Shown: positions 6,934 through 50,922 of the stretch, piece after piece
Position numbering within the stretch: the stretch's first letter is position 1
How the letters are laid out: each line of letters begins with the position of its first letter
NCBI GenBank assembly: GCA_031431415.1
Contig: JANPDK010000096.1
Location: 157 to 64,156, forward strand
DNA from: Acidobacteriota bacterium
GTDB lineage: Bacteria > Acidobacteriota > Blastocatellia > Pyrinomonadales > Pyrinomonadaceae
DNA length: 64,000 nt
Reading direction: 5' to 3'
Position numbers and translations under genes: made by a program
The notes under the pieces: generated by a model
Seen by the model: the letters and a program-made list of their open reading frames with translations, nothing else
Told to the model about the DNA's origin: nothing
Databases searched by the model: none

Positions 6934-7036
6934 TATTTACCGCAGAGACGCAGAGTCGCGGAGGAAAACAAAACCGCTGGAATAGACCAAATAAAATCTC
7001 ATTTGCTCTGCGTCTCGGCGTCTCTGCGGTTTTCAC
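6934..7036. repeat. word-repeat palindromic element (word GCAGAGA / TCTCTGC)
   Basis: TATTTACCGCAGAGACGCAGAGTCGCGGAGG ..loop.. TGCTCTGCGTCTCGGCGTCTCTGCGGTTTTCAC. The arms are reverse complements of each other. Confidence 0.8.
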
Positions 7037-11902: not shown

Positions 11903-12039
11903 CTGACCTCCTGTGTCGGCATCTTTATATTACTGTATCCATATATATTAAGCAACAGGGAATTTCACTCACACTTTCCTCTCCGAATTGATTTGCCCGC
12001 AACTCTCGTTTACGATTAACGCTATTAGCTAACAACACC

Positions 12040-13218
12040 ATGAGCGAACGATCTCTCTTCACCAAATCAGTCCATGCGGGCGACGACCATTCTAGCCATT
12101 TTGGAGCACTGTCGGTTCCGATCTACTGCGCGTCGGTCTTTGCCTTTCCGGATGCTGACGAAGGTGCGGCTATTCATAACGAAGAGAAGGACGGCTATTA
12201 TTACGGTCGCCTCGGCAACCCGACGCAGGGTGCCCTCGAAACGGCGGTCGCCGAACTTGAGAATGGCGAGCAGGCACTCGCACTCGCATCGGGAATGGCC
12301 GCGATCTCTGCCGCCGTATTTACATTGGTAAAAGCGGGCGAACACGTCGTCGCACCGCAGTCTATGTACGCCACGGCGATCAATTTCTTTCACCACATTC
12401 AGGAGCGATTCGGAATCGAGACCACATTTGTCGACGCGACCGATGCCGAGAATTACCGTACGGCTGTCCAGCCTAATACTCGCCTCTTTTGGATCGAGAC
12501 GCCGACGAATCCGCTTGTCTTGATCACCGATATCGATGCCGTTGTGCGAATCGCCCGCGAGCATTCGATCAAGACCGTTGCGGACAACACCTTCGCGACG
12601 CCATTCAATCAACGGCCGCTCGAGCTTGGCGTAGATGCTGTCATCCATAGTGCGACCAAGTATCTCGGTGGCCACGGCGACCTTACTGCGGGTGTTCTGG
12701 TTGGTAGTAGCGAGGTAGTCGATGGCGCGCGTCAAGGTGCCAATAAATTCTACGGCGGCAACATCGCTCCGCAAGTTGCCTGGCTCGTGATACGCGGTAT
12801 CAAGACATTGGCACTGAGAATGGAGCGTCATAATGCAAACGCATTCGCTATAGCGAATATGTTGGGCGATCATCCGAAGGTCGAGGCTGTTTTTTATCCT
12901 GGCCTTGAGTCTCATCAGAACCACGAGATCGCCAAGCGGCAGATGCCCGGGGGGTTTGGCGGTATGATCGGCTTTGATCTTGGTACGGTTGAGCGCGGAA
13001 AGGCATTTGCCAACGCTGTCAGGCTCTGTACGCTCGCAACGTCGCTCGGTGGCGTCGAAACTATCCTGCAGCACTCGGCGTCGATGACTCATGCGACGCT
13101 CCCACGAGAAGATCGGCTTAAAGCAGGCGTCACAGACGGCCTCATCCGCCTTTCGGTCGGCATCGAAGACGTCGACGACCTGATCGAGGATATCACCCAA
13201 GCTCTCGACGCAATCTAA
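12040..13218 (+). CDS. PLP-dependent Cys/Met-metabolism enzyme (methionine gamma-lyase / cystathionine gamma-synthase family)
   Basis: Family-wide similarity including the PLP lysine context [19 protein letters not shown]. Confidence 0.9.
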
Positions 13219-22831: not shown

Positions 22832-24973
22832 TCAAAAGCTGCCGACGAATTCCTTTCGCTCGGATAAACCCTGCACCGCCAGCGAGATCGCGTCGATCTG
22901 GTCGTCGTGGGTACCGGTTGGGAAGGCGGCGGCTTCTTCGACGAGGTCGTGGTTCCAATGGCCGCGGATGAGGAAGACGCGTCCGGCCTCGGCGGCGGCC
23001 ATCCAGCCGATGGCCCGGGAGTGTTTGTCGCCACGCGGTTTTATCCCGCGAAGTGCACGTCCCAGAGTTTGCTTTTCGCGTCCGAGGTCCGCGAGAACGG
23101 CGTGGCCGTTGGCTGACAGCTCGACGATGTGCGATGCGCCGGGCTCGGCGGCGATACGTCCCAGGATATAACGCCGCTGCTCGGGATACTCGATCTTTCG
23201 CCGAAAACCGCCATCGATGTAAATATTCTGCTCCTTATCGACCGCCACACGAAAGCTTGCGGTGTAATCCGAAGTCGCCCCCGCCGAACAAGCCAGATCA
23301 TACGCCCGCACCCACTTCAACCCCGGCGGCGGCGCATTGATCACCTGCCTGAACCAGTCGCGTTTAAATATCCCACCCTCGGCCGGCGAAGGCCGTTGCT
23401 GATAGAGCGAAGCGAATGACCACGTGCCGATCTGTTCGCGGGTGCGTTCGAGTTCGGCAACCGGAAACCGTTCAGGCCAAAGAGCATCGCCGAAACGTCG
23501 GCCGAGTACATCAATCCCGCTCTTTGTCGCTGAAGGCGACAGAGATAATAGCCTGGGGTGAAGCCGTTTCGGCGGAACCCCAGGAACATCAGGTTCAGAG
23601 ACCTCCGCTCCCTGAAGGGGAGCAACTCGCCCCGCGCCTAGTGCGACCCCTTCAGGGTCGGGATCATCTTGGGCGGCAGACCCAGGGTTGCGGCCGTCGG
23701 CCTTACCCTGGGCGATTATCTTTGTCCCCTTCAGGGACATTTCTCCATTCTCGACTCTAAGATCGTTACCGTCTTCCCTTTCCTTCATTCTCAATTCTCC
23801 ATTCTCAATTCTCAATTGGTTCGCCGCTTCGGCGAGCGCCGGCAGATCAACCACTTCCCACTGCTCGCCGCCTTCGTCCATTTGCCGCAGCAATCTCCCG
23901 GCGAGGTCGTCTTCGTGCCAGCGGGTTTGGATGAGGACGACCTGGCCGCCGGGTTCGAGACGCGTGTAGAGGTCGTTGTTCCACCAATTCCAAACCTTGT
24001 CGCGATAGGTGAGCGAATTGGCCTGTTCGCGGTTTTTGACCGGGTCGTCAATGACGATCAGATTCGCACCGAATCCGGTAATGCCCGCTCCGACGCCAAC
24101 AGCCTTGAGCCCGCCGCCCATTGTGGTTTCCCATTCGGACTCGGTGTTCTTAAATCGAGGACGTGCGAATGGGAACGGCGAGCCGGACTCACCAGCAATT
24201 GCCGGAAGAGAAGAATTTTTGCCGCAGATGGGCGCAGATGACGCAGATCTAAGAGGTTTCTGATCTGCGCTTTCTGCGTTTATCTGCGGCAAAATCTCTT
24301 CTGCCGCCTCACGCTCCCGCGATAACATTGCGTCGTCGATCAGTACGCTCTTGATGCCGCGTGAGAATGTGTTCGCCAGCTTCTGGCCGTAGCTCGCGAT
24401 GATCGTGCGCATCGCCGGATCCTTTTTCAAACGCCACGCGGCATAGCGGACGGTGACGAGTTCGGATTTGCCGTGACGCGGCGGCATGAAGATCATCAGC
24501 CGCTTCAGATCGCCCTCGGTCATACGTCGCAAACGCTTGTAAAGATAAAGCTGATGCTTCGCCGTCCATGTCATATTCGGCGAAACAGATATGAGCCATT
24601 GTTTGAACTCGTCGTACTCTTCTTTCGCCGGATCTGGCGGAAGACAGGGAGTAGGGGAGACGGGGAGTTGGGGAGCAGGAACTGCGAACTCGGGTTGCAC
24701 AGCTTCCCCATCTCCCACACTCTCGTTCTCCCCTTCTCCCCCACTCCCCTTCTCCCCCTCTTCTTTGAGCAGCCCGTCCCAGCCGTAGCGTTCGATCCAG
24801 CCGGAGGCGGCTCGGCCGTTCTCGTAGCGTCGGTAGAGCATTCGGCGGTGAAAATCGTCGTAGCCGGCGGAGCGCATTTCGCGTTCGATCTGCTCGTGTT
24901 TTTTACCTCTGTATTTTATATAAAGCTCGCGACAAGCCTCGATACGCTCGAGGTTGCGTTCATGATCGGTCAT
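22832..24973 (-). CDS. phage terminase large-subunit-like protein, orphan, carrying in-frame repeat insertions
   Basis: Walker A IFMPPRHGKSELVT, Walker B NLIVIDDPVKN, VLIQTRWHEDDLAGRL, and C-terminal nuclease motif GTHDDQIDAISLA. The single 713-aa ORF spans three repeat elements. Confidence 0.8.
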   Translation of the reverse strand: MTDHERNLERIEACRELYIKYRGKKHEQIEREMRSAGYDDFHRRMLYRRYENGRAASGWIERYGWDGLLKEEGEKGSGGEGENESVGDGEAVQPEFAVPAPQLPVSPTPCLPPDPAKEEYDEFKQWLISVSPNMTWTAKHQLYLYKRLRRMTEGDLKRLMIFMPPRHGKSELVTVRYAAWRLKKDPAMRTIIASYGQKLANTFSRGIKSVLIDDAMLSREREAAEEILPQINAESADQKPLRSASSAPICGKNSSLPAIAGESGSPFPFARPRFKNTESEWETTMGGGLKAVGVGAGITGFGANLIVIDDPVKNREQANSLTYRDKVWNWWNNDLYTRLEPGGQVVLIQTRWHEDDLAGRLLRQMDEGGEQWEVVDLPALAEAANQLRIENGELRMKEREDGNDLRVENGEMSLKGTKIIAQGKADGRNPGSAAQDDPDPEGVALGAGRVAPLQGAEVSEPDVPGVPPKRLHPRLLSLSPSATKSGIDVLGRRFGDALWPERFPVAELERTREQIGTWSFASLYQQRPSPAEGGIFKRDWFRQVINAPPPGLKWVRAYDLACSAGATSDYTASFRVAVDKEQNIYIDGGFRRKIEYPEQRRYILGRIAAEPGASHIVELSANGHAVLADLGREKQTLGRALRGIKPRGDKHSRAIGWMAAAEAGRVFLIRGHWNHDLVEEAAAFPTGTHDDQIDAISLAVQGLSERKEFVGSF
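23521..23738. repeat. multi-hairpin palindrome, constant TGAAG/CTTCA pentaloops
   Basis: GTCGC tgaag GCGAC (23526-40). GCTCCC tgaag GGGAGC (23607-23). GACCC cttca GGGTC (23645-59). GTCCC cttca GGGAC (23724-38). Also long-range stems CCTGGGG/CCCCAGG and CCCAGGGT/ACCCTGGG. The left and right halves are reverse complements. Confidence 0.85.
23740..23814. repeat. 7-bp direct repeats ATTCTCM (x2, spacer, x4 tandem)
   Basis: Tandem ATTCTCA ATTCTCC ATTCTCA ATTCTCA at 23787-23814, and two more units at 23740-23753. In frame in the terminase-like ORF (RIENGELRM). Confidence 0.85.
24207..24300. repeat. word-repeat palindromic element (word CGCAGAT) inside the terminase-like ORF
   Basis: AAGAGAAGAATTTTTGCCGCAGATGGGCGCAGATGACGCAGATCTAAG..CTGATCTGCGCTTTCTGCGTTTATCTGCGGCAAAATCTCTT. 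Confidence 0.9.
24641..24765. repeat. word-repeat palindromic element (word GGGGAGA) inside the terminase-like ORF
   Basis: GGGAGTAGGGGAGACGGGGAGTTGGGGAGC ..loop.. CTTCCCCATCTCCCACAC..TCTCCCCTTCTCCCCCACTCCCCTTCTCCCCC. Confidence 0.8.
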
Positions 24974-25224: not shown

Positions 25225-25324
25225 AAGAGTTTTGCCCGCGAATAACGCGAATAAAGACGAATAAAGAACTGGCAGAAGTTTTCTTTATTCGTTCTATTCG
25301 CGTTATTCGCGGGCAAAAACTCTT
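25225..25324. repeat. word-repeat palindromic element (word CGCGAAT)
   Basis: AAGAGTTTTGCCCGCGAATAACGCGAATAAAGACGAATAAAG..CTTTATTCGTTCTATTCGCGTTATTCGCGGGCAAAAACTCTT. Confidence 0.95.
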
Positions 25325-26832: not shown

Positions 26833-27000
26833 AAGAAAATTCACCGCAGATAGACGCAGATGGACACAGATAAGAAATTTTTCTGTTGTGGGCGATTAAC
26901 ATTTTCTTTAGTAAAATTCATAGACGGCGCTAGAAGCTGCTTGAAAATAGTCACTTCTTATCTGTGTTTATCTGCGTCCATCTGCGGCTAATTTCCTCTT
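26833..27000. repeat. word-repeat palindromic element (word CGCAGAT), long loop
   Basis: AAGAAAATTCACCGCAGATAGACGCAGATGGACACAGATAAG ..about 75-nt loop.. CTTATCTGTGTTTATCTGCGTCCATCTGCGGCTAATTTCCTCTT. Confidence 0.9.
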
Positions 27001-28063: not shown

Positions 28064-28153
28064 GAAATTTTGGCCGCGGATATGCGCCGATGGAGCGGAT
28101 AAGAAAAGATTCTTGATCTGCGCCATCTGCGCTCATCTGCGGCCAAATCTCTT
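28062..28153. repeat. word-repeat palindromic element (words CGCGGAT/CGCCGAT vs ATCTGCG)
   Basis: AAGAAATTTTGGCCGCGGATATGCGCCGATGGAGCGGATAAG..CTTGATCTGCGCCATCTGCGCTCATCTGCGGCCAAATCTCTT. It starts on the kinase stop codon. Confidence 0.9.
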
Positions 28154-32941: not shown

Positions 32942-33346
32942 CTATACAATATTTGCCTTTTCATAGTTTGCACGCACTACGGTTTTGATGTTGCCGCGCA
33001 CGTTGTAGTCGCCTTCGATCTCGACTTTTATCGGGTCACACGCCTGGACGAAGTCGTCGAGGATGAGATTGACGACGTGTTCGTGGAATATTTTGACGTC
33101 GCGGAACGAATTGATGTAGAGCTTGAGGCTCTTGAGCTCGACGCAGAGTTTGTTGGGTACATATTTCAGCCGGATCACGCCGAAATCGGGAAAATCTGAG
33201 AACGGACAGATCGCCGTGAATTCCGGTATCTCAAATTCCACCCAGATCTCTTTGCCCGGAAACTCGTAAGCAAAAGCGTCGAGCGGATAAAGATCCATCT
33301 CTTCACGCGGCGTCGGGAGGAAGTTTGTTGAGTCTATTGAGTTCAT
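32942..33346 (-). CDS. queF: NADPH-dependent 7-cyano-7-deazaguanine reductase
   Basis: [37 protein letters not shown]. The first 8 codons (MNSIDSTN) lie in a repeat arm, and an alternative start is Met17 (33298). Confidence 0.85.
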
Positions 33347-33770
33347 TGAGTTTATTGAGGTTCAGAATTTCGGAGATGCTGGGCCAGCGTCATGGACATA
33401 CGCGAGATCTCATCAAACAAGCCGTAAATTTCATCAAAGTCTTTCTGGTCAAGATAATCGAGATCGAGAGCAATATACAAGTGAGATTGAACTTCTGCGG
33501 CAGAGCCGTGCGCTTGAACTAGAAAGCTTGCAAAGTCATTATTGGTCCGTCGCCCATTTCCTTCGGCAATATTGGCCATTACCGAGACTGCCGCTCGGCG
33601 AATCTGATTGCAGAGCCCGAAATCCTTCGCGAACGCGGCATTTTTAGACACCTGATAAACGCGAACCGTTCCCACCCTCGCCTTTTGCCACGCCTTTATT
33701 TCCTCAAATCGTTTGAATCCCATATCTCAACAAACTCAATGAACTCAAAACTCAATAAACTCAACAAACT
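33323..33770. mobile_element. candidate cargo-bearing palindromic element: TTGAGTT-word arms bracketing a four-helix-bundle gene
   Basis: The left arm GTTTGTTGAGTCTATTGAGTTCATTGAGTTTATTGAGG (33323-33360) is the inverted complement of the right arm TCAACAAACTCAATGAACTCAAAACTCAATAAACTCAACAAACT (33727-33770). Confidence 0.5.
33352..33723 (-). CDS. four-helix-bundle protein (23S rRNA intervening-sequence protein family)
   Basis: [45 protein letters not shown] matches the TIGR02436-type pattern. Confidence 0.85.
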
Positions 33771-34590
33771 ATCTCACGTACCGATGTTTCCGGTTGCTCA
33801 TCTTCTTCACTCCGGCGAGGTTTTTGACTCCGCCTTCATGCAGCCGTGACAGTAGGTTGATAAATATATGCGCCGTCGCGTGCGCATCCGCGCTCGCCCG
33901 GTGGTGGTTGGTCAGGTCGAGCTTATAAAATTCCGCCATCGTTTTCAGCTTGTGATTGACCGTCTCGGGCACGAGTTTTCGCGACAATTGGACCGTACAC
34001 AGACACGGATTTGCGAGGCGATATTCTGGAAAAACGCGGCTGATCTCGTGGTTCAAAAACCGCATATCAAACCCCGAATTATGCGCCACCAGCACCGAAT
34101 CGCCTATAAATTCAAGAAAATCGACCGCGATCTCTACAAATTTCGGGGCCTCGGCCACCATTTCGTCGGTGATCCCGGTGAGCTGCGTGATGAATATCGG
34201 GATCGGTATCTCGGGGTTGACGAGCGTCTGAAACTCGTCCAACACCTCGCCGTTCTTCACCCTCCAAGCACCGATCTCGGTCACACGGCATGGTGGCGCC
34301 TTTGCTCCCGTAGTCTCGAGATCGAATACGACGAATCCCGTGTCCGACAGATCCTGATCGCCGTAACCTTTTTCAGTAAGCTCAACCGTATCACCATTTA
34401 ACGTCAGCCGAGGATCACGGTCGATAAGGTCCGAAACCAGCAAGGTCGCGAGCAACGGCTGTGGCTTTCTGATCTTCATCACAAAATCCACAACACTCAC
34501 AGCGGACGCCTTGCCGCCAAAAGACCGCAGCAGCGTCACCGTTTCGTTTATTAGCAATGACTCGGAAATTAGGTTAGGATACGGTGTCAC
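33769..34590 (-). CDS. DnaQ-like 3'-5' exonuclease with an N-terminal extension of about 90 aa
   Basis: Exo I FVVFDLETTGA, Exo II VAHNSGFDMRFL, Exo III HRASADAHATAHIF. Confidence 0.85.
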   Translation of the reverse strand: MTPYPNLISESLLINETVTLLRSFGGKASAVSVVDFVMKIRKPQPLLATLLVSDLIDRDPRLTLNGDTVELTEKGYGDQDLSDTGFVVFDLETTGAKAPPCRVTEIGAWRVKNGEVLDEFQTLVNPEIPIPIFITQLTGITDEMVAEAPKFVEIAVDFLEFIGDSVLVAHNSGFDMRFLNHEISRVFPEYRLANPCLCTVQLSRKLVPETVNHKLKTMAEFYKLDLTNHHRASADAHATAHIFINLLSRLHEGGVKNLAGVKKMSNRKHRYVR

Positions 34591-34606
34591 AAGAGAAGTT
34601 TAGCAG

Positions 34607-34637
34607 AGTTTTTTGAGTTTATTGAGTTGGTGAGTCG
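34607..34637. repeat. orphan TTGAGTT-word arm
   Basis: GAGTTTTTTGAGTTTATTGAGTTGGTGAGTC, in the same orientation as the 33323 arm. Confidence 0.7.
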
Positions 34638-34660
34638 CTTTTGACCGACCGGAATTTCAG

Positions 34661-35293
34661 ATGGACATCTTAGAGAAATTTAGAGAGACGAACGCGTTGC
34701 TCGAGGGGCATTTTATCTTGTCGAGCGGGCTGCACAGTCCGAAGTATTTGCAGTGTGCACTCGCGTTGCAGCGGCCCGAGGATGCTTTGTTGTTTGGGCG
34801 AATGATCGCGGAACGTCTTGTCGCAGCGGGGAACGATAGTGACCGGGGCTCGTCTCTAGAAAACGCACAAAGCCCCCTCGCTACCGCGTCGGGTACTGAC
34901 GCTGTTGCTTCGCCGGCGATCGGTGGGCTGGTGATCGGATTTGCCGTTGCGCAGGCATTAGGCGTTAGATTTCTCTGGACCGAGCGGCAGAATGGCGCGA
35001 TGACGTTTCGGCGGGGATTTACGCTGCGTGAAGGCGAGCGCATCTTGGTCGTCGAGGACGTGATAACAACCGGCGGCTCGACGCGCGAATGCATCGCCGC
35101 CCTCGAATCAAACGGCGGAAAGGTAGTCGCTGCAGCGTCAATCATCGACCGCTCGAATGGAACAGCCGATGTAGGAGTGCCGCGAATTTCGCTGGTCGAA
35201 ATGGACGTTCCAAGCTACTCGCCGGCCGATTGTCCAATGTGTGCCGCAGGCATCGTAGCTGTAAAACCGGGCAGTCGAGCTGCTGGTAAATAA
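34661..35293 (+). CDS. pyrE: orotate phosphoribosyltransferase
   Basis: ALLEGHFILSSGLHSPKYLQ and PRPP motif ILVVEDVITTGGS. It contains an extra low-complexity segment (NDSDRGSSLENAQSPLATASGTDAV). Confidence 0.9.
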   Translation: MDILEKFRETNALLEGHFILSSGLHSPKYLQCALALQRPEDALLFGRMIAERLVAAGNDSDRGSSLENAQSPLATASGTDAVASPAIGGLVIGFAVAQALGVRFLWTERQNGAMTFRRGFTLREGERILVVEDVITTGGSTRECIAALESNGGKVVAAASIIDRSNGTADVGVPRISLVEMDVPSYSPADCPMCAAGIVAVKPGSRAAGK

Positions 35294-35392
35294 GAAGTTT
35301 GCCCGCGAATAACGCGAATCTACACGAATAGAAGAAAAGATCTGAGATTCTTTATTCGTCTTCATTCGCGTTATTCGCGGGCAAAAATTCTT
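35292..35392. repeat. word-repeat palindromic element (word CGCGAAT)
   Basis: AAGAAGTTTGCCCGCGAATAACGCGAATCTACACGAATAGAAG..CTTTATTCGTCTTCATTCGCGTTATTCGCGGGCAAAAATTCTT. Confidence 0.95.
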
Positions 35393-35402
35393 GATCTTAA
35401 AT

Positions 35403-36251
35403 ATGAGACCTGTTTGTTTTCTCTCAATGGACGATTTGGGTTGGTATGTAGCCGACGACGATCTGGCGATGCCGCCGCTGAGTGATCTTGGGATTGCGGT
35501 CGAGACGGTTTCGTGGCGGCAAACGGAGCGTGCTTGGAGCGATTTTGAGATTGTGGTGATTCGCACGCCTTGGGATTATCAGTCGTCGCCGACAGAGTTT
35601 CTTGCTGTTCTCGAAACGATCGAGTCTCAGATACGCCTCGAGAATCCGATTGATATTGTTCGCTGGAATCTCGACAAACGCTACCTCCGCGAGATGGAAA
35701 CACGCGGAACGCGGATTGTGCCGACGATCTGGAATGCGAAGTACAACGCGCCGGAATTCGATCGTTGGCTTGGCGAATTTGGCGCCGATGAGATCATCAT
35801 CAAACCGACCGTCAGTGCGACTGCGGAACACACTTATCGACTAAAAACCTACGACGCATCGCTCGAAGACGTTTTCACCATACGCGAATTCCTCGTCCAG
35901 CCCTTCATGCCGAACATCATCGCCGAAGGTGAATATTCGCTCTTCTATTTCAACGGCGAATACAGTCACGCGATCAACAAGTCGCCTAAAATCAACGACT
36001 TCCGCGTCCAGGAAGAACACGGCGGCATCATCACTGAGATTCAGCCGGATAAACATCTGTTAGACGCCGGACGCGAAACCACCGCGACCATCGGCCGCGA
36101 TCTCCTCTACGCACGAGTCGATTTTGTCCGCGACGATGCGGATAATTTTTGCCTGATGGAGCTCGAACTGATCGAGCCCGCATTGTATCTGCGGATGAAC
36201 GACGGTGCACCGCAACGATTTGCTGAGGCGATCATTGCGAGAATTGGCTAA
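35403..36251 (+). CDS. ATP-grasp domain protein
   Basis: VIRTPWDY..NLDKRYL..IIKPTVSATA..FLVQPFMP..GEYSLFYFNGEYSHAI..ARVDFV..LMELELIEP pattern. ATG 35403. Confidence 0.8.
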   Translation: MRPVCFLSMDDLGWYVADDDLAMPPLSDLGIAVETVSWRQTERAWSDFEIVVIRTPWDYQSSPTEFLAVLETIESQIRLENPIDIVRWNLDKRYLREMETRGTRIVPTIWNAKYNAPEFDRWLGEFGADEIIIKPTVSATAEHTYRLKTYDASLEDVFTIREFLVQPFMPNIIAEGEYSLFYFNGEYSHAINKSPKINDFRVQEEHGGIITEIQPDKHLLDAGRETTATIGRDLLYARVDFVRDDADNFCLMELELIEPALYLRMNDGAPQRFAEAIIARIG

Positions 36252-36257
36252 TAAAAC

Positions 36258-36348
36258 CTTTCTTCCTTTGCGTTTCTTTGCGAGCTTTGCGTGAGACACT
36301 CTTTTTTCACGCAAAGCTCGCGAAGGACGCAAAGAAGACGCGAAGAAG
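36258..36348. repeat. word-repeat palindromic element (word CTTTGCG / CGCAAAG)
   Basis: TTTCTTCCTTTGCGTTTCTTTGCGAGCTTTGCGTG..CACGCAAAGCTCGCGAAGGACGCAAAGAAGACGCGAAGAAG. Confidence 0.9.
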
Positions 36349-36351
36349 AAT

Positions 36352-36819
36352 ATGAATTCGGAAGCTATTGAGAAATTTTGGGCGGATTTTTGTCGGACGA
36401 GCGGTGTGGGTGCCGGTACGCCTTACCAGTCCTGGTATTTTGGGAACTCACGCGAGATGGCTCTTGAGTTGGTGCAGTTAGTGATCGCCGGAACGAAGAC
36501 GGCGACAGCGAGTTTGGTCAAGACCAATGAACTCATTCCTGAGAATGCTCCGATCGACAACGGCTACAGCGTAGTGACCGACCTCGATGGCGAACCGATG
36601 TGCGTTATCCGAACCGCCGAGATCCGCCACATTCCTTTTCGCGACGTCGATGCCAAATTCGCCGCTGACGAAGGCGAAGGCGACCTGTCGCTGGAATATT
36701 GGCGCAGAATGCATCGCGATTATTTCGAAAAGGAATCGGCGGAGTTGGGATTTGAATTTGATGAAGACTCGATCGTCTGCTGTGAAAGATTCGAACTCCT
36801 GTCAGAACCGCCTGCGTGA
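36352..36819 (+). CDS. ASCH domain protein
   Basis: 155-aa protein with an ASCH-like pattern (YQSWYFGNSREMALELVQLVIAGTKTATASL). Confidence 0.75.
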   Translation: MNSEAIEKFWADFCRTSGVGAGTPYQSWYFGNSREMALELVQLVIAGTKTATASLVKTNELIPENAPIDNGYSVVTDLDGEPMCVIRTAEIRHIPFRDVDAKFAADEGEGDLSLEYWRRMHRDYFEKESAELGFEFDEDSIVCCERFELLSEPPA

Positions 36820-36833
36820 GCGGGCGGCAGAAT

Positions 36834-36944
36834 GTTTTGCCCGCGAAATACGCGAAAAGAGCGAAAAAGGATTGTCTATATGGCGAATCTGCGGTGACTA
36901 GTCGATTTATATTCGCATTTTTCGTGTATTTCGCGGGCAAACAA
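36834..36944. repeat. word-repeat palindromic element (word CGCGAAA)
   Basis: GTTTTGCCCGCGAAATACGCGAAAAGAGCGAAAAAGG..TATATTCGCATTTTTCGTGTATTTCGCGGGCAAAC. Confidence 0.9.
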
Positions 36945-36990
36945 ATCGACAAATTTTCCAAATATCGCCAAAATTGAAACCGAACACTTA

Positions 36991-37047
36991 GTTCGCTGCT
37001 CTAAACGCTCTTATTTTTCGTAATTTTCGCGTATTTCGCGGGCAAAA
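36991..37047. repeat. orphan right arm (CGCGAAA family) abutting the truA start codon
   Basis: GTTCGCTGCTCTAAACGCTCTTATTTTTCGTAATTTTCGCGTATTTCGCGGGCAAAA, followed directly by ATG 37048. Confidence 0.8.
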
Positions 37048-37803
37048 ATGAATTTCCGACTTCTTATACAATACGACGGCACCGATTTTCATGGGTGGCA
37101 GGTGCAGGAGAATGACCGCTCTATTCAGGGCGAACTCGAGCGTGTGATAGGGATGCTGGTCGATGCTAAGGTGACCCTTCACGGCTCGGGGCGCACCGAT
37201 GCGGGCGTACACGCCGAAGGGCAGGTCGCGAATGTGCATCTGCCTGAGGGAAAGTTCACCGCGGCTAAACTCAAAAATGCGATCAACGGCAATCTGTGGC
37301 GCGACATACGCATAATGAAATGCGAGGTCGCTCCTGACGAATTTCATTCGCGGTTCTCGGCGAAGCGAAAAACTTACATCTATCGCGTCGTGAATGCACC
37401 CGTGATGTCGCCATTCTGGCGGAGGTTCGCGCACTGGGAACACCGTCCGCTCGATGTCGGGCGGATGAATGACGTCGCGAGGCTTTTCCTCGGCGAACAC
37501 GACTGGACGGCATTTGCCTCGGCAAAGGCCGACGGCGAGACGCGTGTGCGAAACGTACTCGATTTTACAGTGGAATCGCACTGGGATGACCGTGCACAGG
37601 CGACTCTTATTGAGTTTCGCATCACGGCAAACGGCTTTTTGCGCTACATGGTCCGCTCGATCGTCGGCACTATGCTCGAGGTGGGTCGAGGCGAAAAGGA
37701 AAGTGATACAATTCAGACGGCAATTATCACAGGCGACCGCAGCCTAGCGGGCAAAACGGCGACGGCGCAGGGATTGACGTTGTATAAGGTCGAATACGAC
37801 TAA
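37048..37803 (+). CDS. truA: tRNA pseudouridine(38-40) synthase
   Basis: LLIQYDGTDFHGWQVQ and the catalytic GSGRTDAGVHAEGQV. Confidence 0.95.
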   Translation: MNFRLLIQYDGTDFHGWQVQENDRSIQGELERVIGMLVDAKVTLHGSGRTDAGVHAEGQVANVHLPEGKFTAAKLKNAINGNLWRDIRIMKCEVAPDEFHSRFSAKRKTYIYRVVNAPVMSPFWRRFAHWEHRPLDVGRMNDVARLFLGEHDWTAFASAKADGETRVRNVLDFTVESHWDDRAQATLIEFRITANGFLRYMVRSIVGTMLEVGRGEKESDTIQTAIITGDRSLAGKTATAQGLTLYKVEYD

Positions 37804-38326
37804 GATTTTTTTTTGCCCGCGAAATACGCGAAAAGGACGAAAAATATTGCGTGATGTCGGAGTTGATCTGTAAGACGAGAGTTACAAGATTATTGGGGCT
37901 TGTTTTGAAGTGTACAAGCTGAAAGGGATCGGCTACACGGAACCGGTTTATCAGGAGTGTTTGAAGTATGAATTTGAGTTGCAGGGAATTCCGTTTGTTT
38001 CTCAGCCGACTTTAGAACTTGAATACAAAGGCAGGATCCTGGAACAGACGTTCAAACCGGATTTTATATGCTACGGAAAGATCGTCATCGAACTAAAAGC
38101 TCTCGAAAAATTAATAGATCCGCATCGTGCACAGGTGCTCAACTACCTGAATACGACCGGATTTGAACTGGGACTTTTAGTAAATTTCGGACATTTTCCA
38201 AGAATAGAATACGAGCGAATAGTTAACACCAAACGCCGTTCCTAAATAAGCGACAAAGAAACCGAAAGTCGCGAAAATTGAGTTTCTTCATTTAGCCCAT
38301 TTCGCGTATTTAGCGGGCAAAAAATA
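37802..38326. mobile_element. candidate cargo-bearing palindromic element: CGCGAAA-word arms bracketing a GxxExxY gene
   Basis: The left arm TTTTTTGCCCGCGAAATACGCGAAAAGGACGAAAAAT (37806-37846) closely matches the reverse complement of the right arm CATTTAGCCCATTTCGCGTATTTAGCGGGCAAAAAA (38287-38326). Confidence 0.55.
37910..38245 (+). CDS. GxxExxY protein (PD-(D/E)XK-like), N-terminus possibly disrupted
   Basis: GYTEPVY motif and KPDFICYGKIVIELKA..AQVLNYLNTTGFELGLLVNFG. The family-typical N-terminal helix (SYKIIGACFEV) is in frame upstream of GTG 37910 but is preceded by a TAA. An ATG at 37854 is in another frame. Confidence 0.7.
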   Translation: MYKLKGIGYTEPVYQECLKYEFELQGIPFVSQPTLELEYKGRILEQTFKPDFICYGKIVIELKALEKLIDPHRAQVLNYLNTTGFELGLLVNFGHFPRIEYERIVNTKRRS

Positions 38327-38328
38327 AA

Positions 38329-38643
38329 ATGCTTATCTACCACATAGTTTTACCCGAAGTGTGGGCGGCTTTTGACACCGGCCTTTACCAGCATGCGAGC
38401 CTCGATAGCGAAGGGTTTATTCATTGCAGTTTTGCCGATCAGCTTGACGGCGTGATCGAGCGTTATTATTCGAAAGAAAGCGAGGTCGTCGTGCTCGAGA
38501 TCGAAAGTGACAGGCTGATGTCGCGAATGATCAGAGAACCATCGACGAACAGCGAGATCTATCCGCACGTGTACGGGCCGATAAATCGCGATGCGATCGT
38601 TTCGGCGACCAAGAAGGATTTGCCCGCGAAACACGCGAAATAG
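38329..38643 (+). CDS. DUF952 domain protein
   Basis: IYHIV..VW..EGFIHCSFADQL pattern. The last 10 or so codons and the stop (KKDLPAKHAK*) are encoded by the next repeat arm. Confidence 0.8.
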   Translation: MLIYHIVLPEVWAAFDTGLYQHASLDSEGFIHCSFADQLDGVIERYYSKESEVVVLEIESDRLMSRMIREPSTNSEIYPHVYGPINRDAIVSATKKDLPAKHAK

Positions 38644-38720
38644 GCGAAATTTATAAAGAGGGTTGGGGAGTCTCGAATTCCTTATTTAGCTTTTTTCGCG
38701 TATTTCGCGGGCAAAAAATC
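38611..38720. repeat. word-repeat palindromic element (word CGCGAAA)
   Basis: AAGAAGGATTTGCCCGCGAAACACGCGAAATAGGCGAAATTT..TTATTTAGCTTTTTTCGCGTATTTCGCGGGCAAAAAATC, followed by ATG 38721. Confidence 0.9.
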
Positions 38721-39476
38721 ATGCTTAAGGGTTTTGAAGGCATTATCAAACCAAATACCGCCGAGGCGAAGCTGCTCGCATCTATCGATGTCGAGCGCAT
38801 GCCGAGGCATGTTGCGGTGATCATGGACGGCAACGGGCGTTGGGCTAAAGCGAAGGGGCAGCCGCGAATTTTTGGGCATCGTGCGGGTGCCGAGTCGGTC
38901 AGATCGATCATTGATACTTGTGCGCGGCTTGAGATACAGGCGGTGACGCTGTTCGCATTTTCGACGGAGAACTGGAAACGCCCGCGTGCCGAGATCCGTG
39001 CGTTAATGTCGATGCTGAAGCGGTATATTCGCACGGATCTTAAAGAAGTTCATAAGAATAATATTCGCTTTCAAGCGATCGGCCATATCGAGGGGCTTTT
39101 CGAAGACGTGCAAAAAGAGATCGCTCGCGCGACCGAGATGACCGCCGAAAACACCGGGATGGTCATGAGCGTCGCCCTCAACTACGGTGGCCGTGCCGAG
39201 ATAGTCGAGGCCGCCCGCAAAGCCGCCGCCGAGGTCGGCACCGACATCACCGAGGCCGACATCGAGCGAAACCTGTACACGCACGGTTTGCCCGACGTAG
39301 ATCTGATGATCCGCACAAGCGGCGAATTTCGTATCTCAAATTTCCTGCTGTGGCAGCTCGCCTACAGCGAGATTTACGTCACGCCAACGCTCTTCCCCGA
39401 CTTTCGCCGACCCGACATTTTCGAGGCGATACTGGATTATCAGAAGCGGGATCGGAGATTTGGAGGCGTGAAGTAA
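38721..39476 (+). CDS. uppS: isoprenyl transferase (undecaprenyl diphosphate synthase family)
   Basis: HVAVIMDGNGRWA, FAFSTENWKRP, and the C-terminal RRFGG. Confidence 0.95.
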   Translation: MLKGFEGIIKPNTAEAKLLASIDVERMPRHVAVIMDGNGRWAKAKGQPRIFGHRAGAESVRSIIDTCARLEIQAVTLFAFSTENWKRPRAEIRALMSMLKRYIRTDLKEVHKNNIRFQAIGHIEGLFEDVQKEIARATEMTAENTGMVMSVALNYGGRAEIVEAARKAAAEVGTDITEADIERNLYTHGLPDVDLMIRTSGEFRISNFLLWQLAYSEIYVTPTLFPDFRRPDIFEAILDYQKRDRRFGGVK

Positions 39477-39587
39477 GAGAAGAACTTTGGCCGCAGATCG
39501 ACGCAGATAAACGCAGATATGAAAAAGACCTAAACATCAGTTCTGATCTGTTTTTATCTGCGTTCATCTGCGGCTAAAATCTCCTTT
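39475..39587. repeat. word-repeat palindromic element (word CGCAGAT, exact 10-bp phasing)
   Basis: CGCAGAT at 39492, 39502 and 39512. ATCTG(CG) at 39546, 39556 and 39566. Flanks are AAGAGAAGAACTTTGGC and GCTAAAATCTCCTT. Confidence 0.95.
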
Positions 39588-39603
39588 CTGAAGGTCATAG
39601 ATT

Positions 39604-40443
39604 ATGAAAACCAGAATTCTCACCGCCCTGATCGCCTTGCCGATCCTGATCGCCGCGATCATTTTGCCGCTTTGGTGGCGTGAGGCGGTTTGGGTTTTTG
39701 TGGCGATCGCGGGGTTTGCGCTTGGGGCCGGGCTGTTTGAATTTTATTCGCTGACCAAGAAGCTTGAGCTAAAGGCGGATGCGGGCATCGGTTATCTCGG
39801 TGCGGCGGTGCTGTTTACGGCGTTTGCACTTGATGCACCGGCAAAGGCTCCTGATCTTGTTTTAATGGCGATCGCCGTGTTTCTGATCGTGCTGCTGATC
39901 ACTCAGACTTTTAGGTTCACAAAAGACTTTTCCAAGATGCTCGCAGGCGTCGGCGTGACGGCACTTGGGGTGATGTATGTCGCTTTCCTCGGCGGCTTTC
40001 TTGTCGCGACTCGTGTCGGGTTTGAGAATACGCCGGGACGGTCAACGCACTTGCTCGCGTACTTTTTCTTGGTGATCTTCGCCTCGGATATCGGCGCATA
40101 TTTCGCCGGACGTACCTTAGGCAACCACAAGCTCGCCCCAATGATCTCTCCCGGCAAAACCGTCGAAGGCCTCATCGGCGGCCTTATAGCTGCCGCCGCA
40201 GCGGCCGCTGTCGCAACCTTCTGGTTCTTCCCGACGCTCCCGTACCAATTCTCGATCCCATTGGCGATCGTTCTGGCCGCCGTCGGCGTCCTCGGCGACC
40301 TCTGCGAAAGCGCCATGAAACGCGGCTCTGGCTCAAAAGACGCCGCCAGCATCCTGCCGGGCCACGGCGGTTTTTTAGATCGACTCGATAGTTTGCTTTT
40401 CGGAGCACCGATACTTTATTACTTTGCACGGTTTTATTTTTAG
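39604..40443 (+). CDS. cdsA: phosphatidate cytidylyltransferase
   Basis: Polytopic membrane protein with SPGKTVEG and GHGGFLDRLDS motifs. Confidence 0.9.
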   Translation: MKTRILTALIALPILIAAIILPLWWREAVWVFVAIAGFALGAGLFEFYSLTKKLELKADAGIGYLGAAVLFTAFALDAPAKAPDLVLMAIAVFLIVLLITQTFRFTKDFSKMLAGVGVTALGVMYVAFLGGFLVATRVGFENTPGRSTHLLAYFFLVIFASDIGAYFAGRTLGNHKLAPMISPGKTVEGLIGGLIAAAAAAAVATFWFFPTLPYQFSIPLAIVLAAVGVLGDLCESAMKRGSGSKDAASILPGHGGFLDRLDSLLFGAPILYYFARFYF

Positions 40444-40461: not shown

Positions 40462-41199
40462 ATGCGTATGAGCGAAGAATCTGAGAGACAGGCGTTGGTT
40501 GATAAATTTGAGTTTTTTGCGGCTATTTTGCTTGGTGCGGCGGCGATATGTACGGCGTTGTCGAGTTTTCAGGCGGGGCTGTGGGATGGTATTCAGGCCG
40601 ATAATTATGGCAAGGCCAATACCGAGGCAACGCAGGCGGCAAGCGAACAGGCAAAGGCTGTCGTGCTGATGTCGAAGGACGCGCAGGTCGATATCACCGC
40701 GTGGCGTTTGATCTACGAGGGCAATGACGCGACGAATCCCGTGGATAAAGAGCGTTCGTTCGAGATCGCGACGTATCTGTACACCAAGCAGATGAGCGAT
40801 GCTGGATATAAAGCTCTCGGATTGCCAGAGGATGCGAGGAAGGAGGTCGTCGATGATCCCGACACTCCGGCAGAAGAAAAACAGGAAGCCTTGAAGGAAG
40901 AGATCCTCGAAAAAGCGCTTGAGACCGAACTCGCCGACAGCGAAGAATATCGAAAGGAAATGCTCGCCGCCTCGACCGCGCTTTCCGATCAATCGTCAAA
41001 AACCTTCAAGGCGGGCCAGGACGCGAACGACACGGGCGACAAATTCGAACTCACCAACGTCATCTTCGCCGTCAGTTTGTTCTTCATGGGTATCGCGCTC
41101 GTCTTCAAGACCCAGATCAAATGGTACGTCCTCTACGCCGGCGGATTTCTGACCATTGCCGGCCTGATCTACATGCTAACGCTCTCGTGGACGTTTTGA
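40462..41199 (+). CDS. hypothetical membrane-anchored protein
   Basis: 245-aa ORF with an N-terminal TM, an acidic helical middle, and two C-terminal TM helices (VIFAVSLFFMGIALVF, YVLYAGGFLTIAGLIYML). Confidence 0.6.
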   Translation: MRMSEESERQALVDKFEFFAAILLGAAAICTALSSFQAGLWDGIQADNYGKANTEATQAASEQAKAVVLMSKDAQVDITAWRLIYEGNDATNPVDKERSFEIATYLYTKQMSDAGYKALGLPEDARKEVVDDPDTPAEEKQEALKEEILEKALETELADSEEYRKEMLAASTALSDQSSKTFKAGQDANDTGDKFELTNVIFAVSLFFMGIALVFKTQIKWYVLYAGGFLTIAGLIYMLTLSWTF

Positions 41200-41203
41200 A
41201 CTT

Positions 41204-41304
41204 AGTGGTCTTTGTGTCCTCCCTTCGTGTCCTTTGTGATAAATGGTTTTGAAAAGCCTTTGTTCACAAAGTCCACAAAGGGAAGACACGGAGAGCACAA
41301 AGGA
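41204..41304. repeat. word-repeat palindromic element (word CTTTGTG / CACAAAG)
   Basis: GTGGTCTTTGTGTCCTCCCTTCGTGTCCTTTGTGA..TCACAAAGTCCACAAAGGGAAGACACGGAGAGCACAAAGG. Confidence 0.85.
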
Positions 41305-41417
41305 TTTGCTTTTAGAGTTCGTCTGTTAGTATGATTGCAATTCAAGACGGTTATGAACGCAGTTCGGTTTGACGACAATAATAATACGTAGGCGAGAGTG
41401 TTAATTATCTGACGCTC

Positions 41418-41459
41418 CGCCTTTCGTTTTGTCACAAACCGGAAGGCGTTTTTATTTTT
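41418..41459 (+). terminator. intrinsic-terminator-like hairpin plus T-tract
   Basis: CGCCTTTC (41418-25) pairs with GGAAGGCG (41441-48), including one G-U, and is followed by TTTTTATTTTT. Confidence 0.55.
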
Positions 41460-41466
41460 GTAAGGC

Positions 41467-41565
41467 AATTTAGCCGCAGATTTCCGCAGATGACGCGGAT
41501 CAGAATGAATTCTTGTTTAGATTCTTAATCTGCGCGATCCGCGTTAATCTGCGGCAAAAATTCTT
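41467..41565. repeat. word-repeat palindromic element (word CGCAGAT) abutting the aspS start
   Basis: TTAGCCGCAGATTTCCGCAGATGACGCGGATCAG..CTTAATCTGCGCGATCCGCGTTAATCTGCGGCAAAAATTCTT, followed by ATG 41566. Confidence 0.9.
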
Positions 41566-43410
41566 ATGCTAGATGTATTGGGAACTTTAGAGAGGACGCA
41601 CGGTTGTGGGGAGCTTCGTGAGAGCGAGGTTGGCTCGCAGGTTGTGCTGATGGGTTGGGTGGCGAAGAAGCGTGATTTTGGCGTTTTTACGTTTATCGAT
41701 CTGCGTGACCGCGACGGTGTGACGCAGGTTGTGGTGAGCGAAGAGACCGCTGTCGACGCTCATGCCAAGGCGAAAAATCTGCGCGGCGAATTCGTGATCG
41801 GGGTCAAAGGCGAGGTTGTTCGGCGTGGCGAAGGTGCGAAGAACGTTAAGCTGCCGACGGGCGAGATCGAGGTCAAGGTCAGTGAGATATTGGTTTTGAA
41901 CGACGCCAATGTGCTGCCATTTCAACTTGAAGTTGCAGGTAGTGAAAATCTCGCCGCCGAAGATACACGTTTGAAATACCGCTATCTCGACCTGCGTCGC
42001 CCCGCGTTGCAACACAATATTCGCACCCGTGCCAAGGCTGTCGCGGCGATACGCGAGTATTTTGACACGCGTGGGTTTATCGAGATCGAGACGCCGATCT
42101 TGCTGAAATCGACGCCTGAGGGAGCACGCGATTTTGTTGTGCCTTCGCGGATTCACACGGGCAAATTCTTTGCGTTGCCGCAGTCACCGCAGATATTAAA
42201 GCAGCTCACGATGATCTCGGGCTTTGACAAGTACTATCAGATCGCCCGTTGTTTTCGCGACGAAGACCTCCGCGCCGACCGCCAGCCGGAGTTTACGCAG
42301 CTCGATATGGAGATGTCGTTTGCCCACCAGGAAATGGCGTATCGCGAGATGCAGGGGATGTTCAATCACGTCTTCGCCAAGGTCGGCGGCATTGAATTGC
42401 CCGCCGCGTGGCCGCGGATGACTCATGCGGAAGCAATGCGTCGCTACGGTTCGGACAAGCCAGATCTGCGGTTTGAGATGGAGTTGGTCGATCTGAGCGG
42501 CGAGCTTGCAGGAACCGATTTTGGCCCGTTCGCCTCGGTTCTCGAATCCGGCGGTGAGATCAAATGTATTGTTGCTAAGGGCAAGGCCGATTATTCGCGC
42601 AAACAGCTCGACGAACTGCAGGATTTTGTAAAACGCTATGGAGCGGGAGCCTTGGCATGGATCAAGGTCGGCGAACCCGAGGTCAGTACCGAGAGCGGTA
42701 GCGACCGGGGCACTACATCGTCGCTGATGAAAGTGCTCGGCGAAGAGAAGATCGGACAGCTTGTAGCTACGTCGGGAGCGGAGAAAGGCGATCTCGTTCT
42801 CATCGTCGCCAGCCGTAAGTCTGTCGTTGCCGCATCGCTCGGAGCTTTGCGTATCGAGGTTGCGAAACGCGAAGACCTGATCGACCGCACGGCCTACAAA
42901 CCGCTGATCGTGACCGAGTTTCCGATGTTCGAGCATGACGAAGAGACCGACCGCTACACGGCGGCGCATCATCCGTTTACGTCGCCGATGGATGAGGACC
43001 TGGAGAAATTCACGACCGCGGTGAATGACGAATCTCAACATCATTTGCTCGGCGAGGTCCGCGCCAAGGCATACGACGCCGTCATCAACGGCTACGAATG
43101 CGCCGGCGGCTCGATACGTATTCATCAGAAGGATGTGCAGGCTCTGAACTTCAAAGCTCTCGGCATGTCGCTGGAATCGGCTCGGACGCAGTTCGGGTTT
43201 TTCCTCGACGCATTGGAATTTGGCACGCCGCCGCACGGCGGTTTCGCCGCTGGCATCGAACGCACATGCATGATCCTCTGCGGCACGGAAAACATCCGCG
43301 ACGTCATGGCCTTCCCCAAAACCGCCTCAGCCCAGGACCTGATGATGGACTCGCCGGGCGAGGTGGATGGCTCGCAGTTGAAAGAGCTAGGCATCGAGGT
43401 AACGGAGTAA
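41566..43410 (+). CDS. aspS: aspartate--tRNA ligase
   Basis: OB-fold N-domain, motif 2 FRDEDLRADRQPEFTQLD, GGSIRIH, and motif 3 GFAAGIERTCM. Confidence 0.95.
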   Translation: MLDVLGTLERTHGCGELRESEVGSQVVLMGWVAKKRDFGVFTFIDLRDRDGVTQVVVSEETAVDAHAKAKNLRGEFVIGVKGEVVRRGEGAKNVKLPTGEIEVKVSEILVLNDANVLPFQLEVAGSENLAAEDTRLKYRYLDLRRPALQHNIRTRAKAVAAIREYFDTRGFIEIETPILLKSTPEGARDFVVPSRIHTGKFFALPQSPQILKQLTMISGFDKYYQIARCFRDEDLRADRQPEFTQLDMEMSFAHQEMAYREMQGMFNHVFAKVGGIELPAAWPRMTHAEAMRRYGSDKPDLRFEMELVDLSGELAGTDFGPFASVLESGGEIKCIVAKGKADYSRKQLDELQDFVKRYGAGALAWIKVGEPEVSTESGSDRGTTSSLMKVLGEEKIGQLVATSGAEKGDLVLIVASRKSVVAASLGALRIEVAKREDLIDRTAYKPLIVTEFPMFEHDEETDRYTAAHHPFTSPMDEDLEKFTTAVNDESQHHLLGEVRAKAYDAVINGYECAGGSIRIHQKDVQALNFKALGMSLESARTQFGFFLDALEFGTPPHGGFAAGIERTCMILCGTENIRDVMAFPKTASAQDLMMDSPGEVDGSQLKELGIEVTE

Positions 43411-43683: not shown

Positions 43684-43724
43684 TTTTCTTTTCGCGTCCT
43701 TCCGCGTATTTCGCGGGCAAAATC
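43684..43724. repeat. orphan right arm (CGCGAAA family)
   Basis: TTTTCTTTTCGCGTCCTTCCGCGTATTTCGCGGGCAAAATC. Confidence 0.8.
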
Positions 43725-50710: not shown

Positions 50711-50922
50711 TGACCCGCCGCAGGCGGGCATATAGCCCCGTCCTTTAGGGCGGGGTTAGGATCGAACTGGGAATTCAAGGGCGTTTTAACGCCCTTACTG
50801 TCGCACCGATCACGGCAATGCTAAAGCGGCAAGAAGCTAAGCCCGTTAAAACGGGCTGGGAACCAGTGGTCGGCTTCTCCCCGCCCTAAAGGGACGGGGC
50901 TATGTGCCGCGTATGGCGGTCG
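50711..50922. repeat. multi-hairpin palindrome, constant TTTA/TAAA tetraloops
   Basis: CCCCGTCC ttta GGGCGGGG (50736-55). AAGGGCGT ttta ACGCCCTT (50777-96). AGCCCGT taaa ACGGGCT (50840-57). CCCCGCCC taaa GGGACGGGG (50879-99). The two halves are reverse complements. Confidence 0.85.

Follow-up and report, generated by a model that had tools for sequence, protein, structure and literature searches.

In a stretch of 64,000 nucleotides (nt) of genomic DNA from an Acidobacteriota bacterium of the family Pyrinomonadaceae (contig JANPDK010000096.1, positions 157 to 64,156 of the forward strand; hereafter the window), the spacer between truA (37048-37803) and a DUF952 gene (38329-38643) contains one copy of an old and compact unit of ~520 nt. 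The unit consists of a GxxExxY gene, encoding a predicted PD-(D/E)XK nuclease, together with inverted arms that are the gene family's own. Gene and arms are one old unit, and arms composed of CGAA words accompany the GxxExxY family across phyla. A first-pass annotation of the window had instead described the gene as cargo of a CGCGAAA-word element.

The two arms are located at 37806-37842 and 38291-38327, measure 37 nt each, are 86% complementary and leave 448 nt between them, which agrees with the first-pass annotation, where the arm near 37806 had been matched to the reverse complement of about 38287-38326. That the arms enclose only the GxxExxY open reading frame (ORF), as it had also claimed, is likewise correct: a single frame (37874-38245) with a full-length match to TIGR04256 lies in the interval. 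On the forward strand, the left arm (37806-37846) begins with a T-run and GCC, continues with three words of ~9 nt, CGCGAAATA, CGCGAAAAG and GACGAAAAA, and terminates 7-11 nt ahead of an ATG at 37854. The stretch after the stop codon (38246-38290) holds the degenerate words GCGACAAAG, AACCGAAAG and TCGCGAAAA. It is followed by the right arm (38291-38327), in which the words appear reverse-complemented (...TTTCGCGTATTTAGCGGGC) before an A-run, and which terminates 1 nt ahead of the DUF952 ATG. With at most 3 mismatches allowed, 12 occurrences of the 22-nt arm word TTTGCCCGCGAAATACGCGAAA were counted in the window, compared with 0.00 expected from 100 shuffles; the bare 7-mer CGCGAAA is not enriched there (37 observed, 34 expected). 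Neither gene-flanking arm forms a stable fold when folded alone (z = -0.2 and -1.7). The gene-flanking arms are half-hairpins, and the GxxExxY gene occupies the loop position of the short gene-less hairpins that are present in the same window. We rejected the idea that the arms are intrinsic terminators because on both strands the T-run stands before the stem and the A-run after it, and none was called in a promoter and terminator scan of 36700-38800, which placed no site in the arms and gave counts not above those of shuffles. An Rfam search of 33000-40000 and 41150-41600 at E <= 1 returned only matches resembling hairpins of miRNA precursors, below the gathering score, with no rRNA and no known family.

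GxxExxY genes are usually present in several copies per genome. Scanning one genome per species, we collected 46 GxxExxY loci from Acidobacteriota, Planctomycetota, Verrucomicrobiota, Bacteroidota, Gammaproteobacteria and other lineages. A bracket score was calculated by aligning the 120 nt upstream of a gene to the reverse complement of the 120 nt downstream, for 32 usable GxxExxY genes and 171 neighbouring control genes. The median inverted-repeat score was 38 for the GxxExxY genes and 16 for the controls (Mann-Whitney p = 3e-16), and a score of at least 36 was reached by 53% of the former and 1% of the latter. The words also have a fixed orientation: CGAA upstream plus TTCG downstream amounted to 3.5 per GxxExxY gene compared with 0.74 in controls (p = 6e-12), while the reverse word orientation was not enriched over controls. 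The first-pass annotation had considered that other GxxExxY copies might be devoid of inverted arms, but flanking arms are the rule among these 32 genes. Throughout the family the arms are made of ~9-nt words with the core (C/A)CGAA(A/T), as in GCCCGCGAAATACGCGAAA from Acidobacteriota, GAACACGAAATACACGAAATACACGAAAAA from Planctomycetota, CACCACGAAATACACGAAACAC from Verrucomicrobiota, GCCACGAAAGACACGAAAAGGGCACGAAAA from a gammaproteobacterium and GCCACGAATAAACGAATT from flavobacteria. In a hand comparison of arm sequences, those of Planctomycetota and Acidobacteriota were ~79% identical.

In most of the 8-kb GxxExxY loci, the arm core was found only at the two flanks of the gene. Because the arms are mostly confined to the gene in these other loci, the association is no by-product of hairpin-rich spacers. 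A regex scan for gene-less CGAA-word hairpins, which under-counts since it missed tandem arrays in the loci L021 and L027 as well as the window hairpin at 36836-36941, found one distinct case in 305 kb of GxxExxY loci (L023, duplicated in L024) and none in 207 kb of loci of a second, four-helix-bundle gene family that is treated below. An arm search with nine-mers allowing one mismatch was too noisy and was discarded. A gene-less hairpin with matching words occurs elsewhere at L011 6511-6600, from a metagenome-assembled genome of Methylacidiphilales. In some Bacteroidales, the GxxExxY gene is flanked by tandem arrays of short CACGAAT-word hairpins with a period of ~80 nt (L021 3674-6016; L027 771-1877; L023 4393-4776).

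Comparison with close relatives reveals the history of the unit. The order ASCH-truA-(arm)GxxExxY(arm)-DUF952-uppS is common to the window and the relatives L003 and L001/L004. Compared with the window, L003 has 83-94% nucleotide identity across four flanking-gene and GxxExxY segments and 98% amino-acid identity in the GxxExxY protein, which is 89% identical in L001/L004. In L005 and L006, both Pyrinomonadaceae, the truA|DUF952 spacers are 43 and 82 nt long and hold other small hairpins, and neither a GxxExxY gene nor a CGCGAAA arm was found in them. Both genomes have a GxxExxY gene, 79-81% identical, downstream of cdsA; the unit of L005, read directly, has both arms and sits just upstream of aspS. 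A location downstream of cdsA is likewise found in L007, L009 and L010. At the aspS site the window carries a hairpin of another word family (41469-41559) and L001 only the relic ATTCGCGGGCAAAA. The comparison of relatives' spacers thus shows that gene and arms come and go together at truA|DUF952, and it indicates that the unit has changed spacer inside one gene neighbourhood. Occupied and empty spacers have diverged too far for a comparison that could reveal target-site duplications. The arms are conserved far better than synonymous sites: relative to L003, left arm plus spacer retain 96% identity at a dS of 0.44 for the gene, and relative to L001 the arms retain ~76-80% (by our own column count) at a dS of 1.5. 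Short hairpins turn over fast, with three different families in the DUF952|uppS spacer of the window, L003 and L001.

These observations bear on a homing scenario, close to the cargo picture of the first-pass annotation, in which CGAA hairpins would be independent mobile repeats, the nuclease gene would cut their loops and be copied in, and the arms would represent the split target. Such a scenario could account for the exact loop position of the gene relative to gene-less hairpins, for its presence/absence polymorphism among relatives at truA|DUF952 and for the predicted nuclease fold of its product. We nevertheless regard it as improbable, because the gene-free spacers of L005 and L006 hold no CGCGAAA hairpin into which a gene could home, and because in most phyla the surroundings of the gene have few or no gene-less CGAA hairpins, whereas arms are hardly ever missing. 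Moreover, the polymorphism at a conserved site recalls a free-standing homing endonuclease gene, but dN/dS values of 0.02-0.05 at a stable locus are unlike the gain-decay-loss cycle of such genes. The term cargo is abandoned here for related reasons: the arms track the gene family across phyla, are rarely seen gene-less in 305 kb, and are present or absent together with the gene at truA|DUF952. The comparison of this spacer in relatives, a check proposed in the first-pass annotation itself, turned out unfavourable to its picture.

The gene within the arms is readily identified. The frame 37874-38245 matches TIGR04256 (GxxExxY) with 133.3 bits (cutoff 35) over profile positions 2-116 of 116 and PF13366 (PDDEXK_3) with 130.3 bits (cutoff 22). 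These were the only matches to Pfam and NCBIfam profiles, and no HUH/Y1 transposase domain was found. The forward-strand translation runs from DESYKIIGACFEV to a final RRS before the stop codon and has the motifs GYTEPVY, PDF (as KPDF) and ELK (as IELK) intact, with no further damage beyond one lost base. Across 40 homologues, G27, E30, Y33, D70 and E80 are invariant and K82 is nearly invariant. The AF2 model (pLDDT 91, pTM 0.84) predicts a minimal PD-(D/E)XK fold with confidence. Its best Foldseek match is Cas4 SSO0001 (4ic1, E = 1e-4, TM 0.52), followed by lambda exonuclease (3slp), Hjc and tRNA-splicing endonuclease. The predicted fold thus comes closest to PD-(D/E)XK nucleases of the Cas4, lambda exonuclease and RecB type, although the GxxExxY protein has only ~130 amino acids (aa) and, in contrast to Cas4-type nucleases, no Fe-S cluster module and no extra domains. 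A sequence search of the PDB gave no homologue, PADLOC one weak match (Cas4a2, E = 0.002), PHROGs no match, and tblastn against GenBank phages no GxxExxY match.

The closest database proteins (P0001-P0014) have 130 aa and all start with MSELI[Y/C]KDESYKIIGACFEV (MSELI[Y/C]KDESYK). Compared with these and with L003, the window has lost one G of AAG-GAC at 37874/37875: L003 reads ATG TCG GAG TTG ATC TAT AAG GAC GAG AGT and the window ATG TCG GAG TTG ATC TGT AAG -AC GAG AGT. From the original start region (37854-37922, forward strand), translation from ATG 37854 gives MSELICK before the frame is lost, so that the present product would be a 22-aa peptide (MSELICKTRVTRLLGLVLKCTS, then stop). The first-pass annotation had correctly noted that a TAA stands at 37871, which is an out-of-frame reading of TGT-AAG, that ATG 37854 belongs to another frame and that a GTG follows at 37910, and had concluded that the 5' end is damaged; of its three options, frameshift, truncation or unusual start, the frameshift applies. 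The GTG, the first in-frame start past the shift, would drop the invariant residues Y11 to V20. An unusual start codon and a programmed frameshift were both rejected, as close relatives all have a plain ATG frame that is one base away from the window. The same deletion is present in Logan contig L050 (run SRR20217180), which is identical to the window over 1196 nt; since this assembly is independent, the deletion cannot be blamed on a single assembler. Once the missing base is put back, comparison with L003 yields a dN/dS of 0.023 and comparison with L001 one of 0.045, and thus the gene was under strong purifying selection until very recently. By its sequence, the window copy is an ordinary member of the known family TIGR04256/PF13366 with a recent frameshift; the loss of one G, in codon 8, is very recent and has probably inactivated this copy. 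The appropriate annotation is a frameshifted GxxExxY gene rather than a protein of 111 aa that begins at GTG 37910.

In the window, words of the arm family are also found away from the gene. Two gene-less hairpins of the same subfamily lie in the ASCH|truA spacer (36836-36941, z = -6.9) and in the DUF952|uppS spacer (38619-38715, z = -5.9), where the left arm of the hairpin contains the DUF952 stop codon. Two solo right arms occur at 37012-37047, directly ahead of the truA ATG, and at 43690-43723. Two further gene-less hairpins belong to a second subfamily with GAATAACGCGAAT words (25230-25318, z = -13; 35298-35385, z = -11). The gene-less hairpins of the arm family thus all show strong DNA folding (z = -5.9 to -13). 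The second subfamily shares its words with the arms of GxxExxY genes from L009 and L010, a more distant clade; this match predicts a second GxxExxY paralogue elsewhere in the genome from which the window derives. Of the six other family elements, four are found no more than 2.8 kb from the GxxExxY gene (P ~7e-4 under uniform placement); hairpins with CGCAGAT words are spread along the window. The stretch preceding the first solo arm (36942-37047 including the arm) is ~74% identical to the post-stop stretch of the unit, a similarity that is only suggestive as the stretch is A-rich, and the region of this solo arm pairs with the left arm at 36835-36868 (91% over 34 nt). The segment 36942-37047 may be the relic of a second unit that has lost its gene. 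At the ends of five inspected elements no target-site duplication was seen.

The first-pass annotation had regarded better pairing with neighbouring arms as a sign against a bracket, and such pairing does exist in the window. The left arm pairs with 37012-37053 at 90% over 42 nt and with 38693-38718 at 100% over 26 nt, and in the identity matrix its best match is the solo arm before truA (33/36), compared with 28/36 for its own partner. It could therefore be argued that a left and a right hairpin half happen to flank an unrelated small gene, the more so as two solo arms exist in the window. In L004, however, a 20-nt core from the left arm hits nothing in 8 kb but this arm pair, which is conserved along with the gene. 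Since the same bracket also occurs in ~30 genes from at least five phyla, chance juxtaposition is a most improbable explanation. The simplest reading of the sequences is that the neighbouring arms are younger local copies nearer to the family consensus, rather than evidence of mis-pairing.

The same layout with other words surrounds a second gene in the window. On the minus strand, ORF 33352-33723 encodes a TIGR02436 four-helix-bundle protein, Avd-like according to PHROGs, and lies in a parallel unit (33314-33778) between arms of CTCAATAAA-type words at 33314-33359 and 33726-33778, the latter with about five CTCAA-type words. A further solo arm of CTCAATAAA words is present at 34607-34628, and the unit is absent from relative L001. 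In a metagenome scan with 80 four-helix-bundle relatives, 75 of them usable, 40% of the latter reached a bracket score of at least 36. Their arms consist of tandem 7-9-nt words with an (A/G)AGT(T/C) core, for example GAGTCTAAGAGTCTAAGAGTC and AAGTCGTAAAGTCATCAAGTC. The word content is specific for each family: CGAA words number 2.0 per flank for GxxExxY and 0.25-0.5 for four-helix-bundle genes, AGT-type words 0.7-1.1 and 5.7, respectively. A scan of IMG/VR for the four-helix-bundle gene gave no match. The first-pass annotation was thus right that a second gene family shares the architecture; the element, however, is a different one, with CTCAATAAA words here and an AGT core family-wide.

How the unit operates can be outlined only conditionally. 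It sits co-oriented in the operon truA-(unit)-DUF952-uppS-cdsA, and units are generally co-oriented with the upstream gene (27/30 for GxxExxY and 55/60 for four-helix-bundle genes, jointly 82/90, compared with 75% of control pairs; combined p = 1e-4). With the arms directly adjoining the ORF, a separate promoter does not fit, so that transcription would probably occur by read-through from the upstream gene. The unit would be passed on vertically for long periods under strong purifying selection and occasionally relocate as a whole to another intergenic spacer. In the lineage of the window, the arms would also have given rise to multiple gene-less hairpins, which mostly lie less than 3 kb from the gene. 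Because the encoded protein is the only family-specific component able to read family-specific words, we infer that each protein recognizes its own arms. The nuclease might recognize the word arrays themselves or a hairpin or cruciform formed by them, and it may act in cis on the arms, thereby maintaining or moving its own unit and the gene-less hairpins. We favor, tentatively and at slightly less than even odds, such a relation of the GxxExxY nuclease to its own arms and their gene-less copies, by analogy with REPtrons and TIRtrons.

In REPtrons and TIRtrons, RAYT or TIRYT genes are flanked by REP or TIR repeats (PMC3733652, PMC5581495). The GxxExxY unit resembles them in having one gene framed by inverted copies of a repeat whose further copies are dispersed as hairpins, in vertical inheritance under purifying selection, and in expression proposed to come from read-through transcripts. 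It differs in several respects: the GxxExxY protein is no HUH/Y1 transposase, the arms are 35-45-nt word arrays starting with TTTGCCCGCGAAA, the GTAG/CGTC tag of REPtrons (defined in PMC3733652) is absent from them, and the layout is shared by a second protein family that is not enzymatic. Miniature inverted-repeat transposable elements (MITEs) are comparable in their short non-coding copies (here 85-105 nt) with terminal inverted repeats, whose ends are common to a longer gene-bearing copy, and in the clustering and variability of the short copies among close relatives. A difference from MITEs is that no target-site duplication was found at the five inspected elements, that no recognized transposase is encoded, and that in most genomes only the gene-bearing form was seen.

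A further system with a similar architecture is the intervening sequence (IVS) of 23S rRNA in Coxiella and Leptospira, where an ORF for S23p, described as a homopentamer, is located in the loop of a terminal-inverted-repeat stem that is cut by RNase III (PMC4990558). Like the GxxExxY unit, it has 400-500 nt, one small ORF looped by an inverted-repeat stem and a position inside a host transcript, and it is sporadic and suspected to be mobile. This suggests an explanation at the RNA level, in which the arms would pair in the read-through transcript as a 30-45-bp stem and RNase III cleavage would release, limit or insulate the small cistron. The words would then be a slippage-prone route to a long stem, or sites at which the protein autoregulates its message, and mobility would be rare and host-mediated. 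The strong co-orientation with the upstream gene is consistent with this idea, as are the flanks devoid of promoter-like or terminator-like sites in the scan and the folding of the 541-nt RNA of the unit, whose minimum-free-energy and centroid structures both close through the two arms (z = -4.0). Furthermore, the S23p family of four-helix bundles encoded in the IVS is the other family with word arms in the window, and one mechanism would cover both gene families. However, the mismatches between paired arms are not biased towards G:U on either strand, neither for GxxExxY (sense 12, antisense 10, other 29) nor for four-helix-bundle arms (32 vs 29); thus nothing specifically indicates an RNA stem. 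In addition, word cores are conserved per family across phyla, down to the similarity of planctomycetal and acidobacterial arms given above, which a stem alone would not demand, and the clustered gene-less hairpins with the same words would be left unexplained. We therefore regard an RNA-level unit as the main alternative, yet a rather unlikely one. In contrast to the IVS, the GxxExxY unit is located between protein-coding genes, with no rRNA found by Rfam in 33000-40000, contains a PD-(D/E)XK ORF, tandem family-specific word arms and dispersed gene-less arm copies, and its cutting by RNase III is hypothetical. By these comparisons, the unit is neither an IVS nor a REPtron or TIRtron, and it cannot be assigned to a MITE family, though it would work most like those systems.

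Several points weigh against an action of the nuclease in cis. Binding, cleavage and transposition by the GxxExxY protein are purely predicted, and no target-site duplication was found at the inspected elements. The four-helix-bundle units share the architecture although their protein has no nuclease domain, so that a mechanism common to both cannot need an element-encoded nuclease, which weakens the proposal. Few or no gene-less hairpins are found near the gene in most sampled genomes, and thus the spawning of hairpins is no general activity. The arms could aid expression or RNA processing instead of mobility, the hairpin clustering could partly come from the density of short spacers in this operon, and the apparent relocation between truA|DUF952 and aspS could be due to independent gain and loss of paralogues.

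Some neighboring features deserve mention. In the window (38619-38643), L003 (1320-1354) and L001 (10760-10786), the final codons of DUF952 together with its stop codon fall within the hairpin of the DUF952|uppS spacer, and the C-terminal tails differ accordingly among them (...DLPAKHAK, ...RIDAD and ...PVGSAHS, respectively). Right arms ending at 37047, 38327, 38715, 41559 and 35385 end in GGCAAAA and are located 0-20 nt ahead of the starts of truA, DUF952, uppS, aspS and an ATP-grasp gene; they thereby give these genes A-rich leaders, in which nothing resembling a Shine-Dalgarno sequence can be seen. Hairpins with CGCAGAT-type words make up a third family, which has more members (6939-7030, 24209-24302, 26834-26997, 28069-28147, 39486-39578, 41469-41559). 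Its ends, TTTRGCCGC...GCGGCAAA, resemble those of the CGCGAAA family, and no gene lies between its arms in the window. Other repeats are a CACAAAG-word hairpin at 41198-41307 after ORF 40462-41199, a hairpin or inverted repeat of another type at 36261-36338 in the spacer before the ASCH gene, and an inverted pair of the GGCATATAGCCCCGTCC type at 50727-50908. Between uppS and cdsA, L001 has a gene for 257 aa (11600-12498) with a weak Y1_Tnp match (RAYT/TIRYT-like). A hairpin of ~100 nt from a further family stands ahead of it; the corresponding spot in the window is taken by a CGCAGAT hairpin. Directly upstream of aspS, a mini-ORF is conserved in the window (41353-41455), L001 (13335-13435), L005 (3853-3950) and L007 (~3870-3960). 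It reads ATG AAC GCA GTT CGG TTT GAC GAC AAT AAT AAT ACG TAG and is translated to MNAVRFDDNNNT (MNAFRLNNDNNT in L007), with a stem and a T-run after it. The mini-ORF looks like a leader-peptide attenuator rich in Asp/Asn codons; an Rfam search of this region gave no match. In L005, the GxxExxY unit sits between the attenuator-like element and the aspS start.

In conclusion, the architecture is general and statistically strong: family-specific word arms surround two large gene families and have gene-less hairpin offspring. It is apparently undescribed; our literature search found no account of GxxExxY function or arms, but was limited, so that novelty is not proven, and a survey of PD-(D/E)XK proteins lists PF13366 as "Unknown". 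We speculate, well aware that the odds are against so broad a view, that the GxxExxY nuclease and the Avd/S23p-like four-helix bundle have each co-evolved across phyla with their own word arrays, with CGAA and AGT cores, as an undescribed class of unit in which an oligomer of the encoded protein reads the array, e.g. one word per subunit, given the five or so words in the arm at 33726-33778 and the homopentamer described for S23p. The 23S IVS would then be a unit that landed in rRNA, and many intergenic word hairpins of Acidobacteriota, Planctomycetota, Verrucomicrobiota and Bacteroidota would be gene-less offspring. Neither TIGR04256/PF13366 nor TIGR02436, both of them very large and multi-copy, has a known function, and the fixed family-specific word array around each gene provides a candidate nucleic-acid ligand for binding and cleavage tests. 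The finding ties both families to the 30-year-old question of the nature of ORF-bearing intervening sequences in 23S rRNA. It also points to a possible source of the abundant intergenic hairpin repeats that make spurious ORFs and alter gene ends, such as the DUF952 stop located in a hairpin arm.

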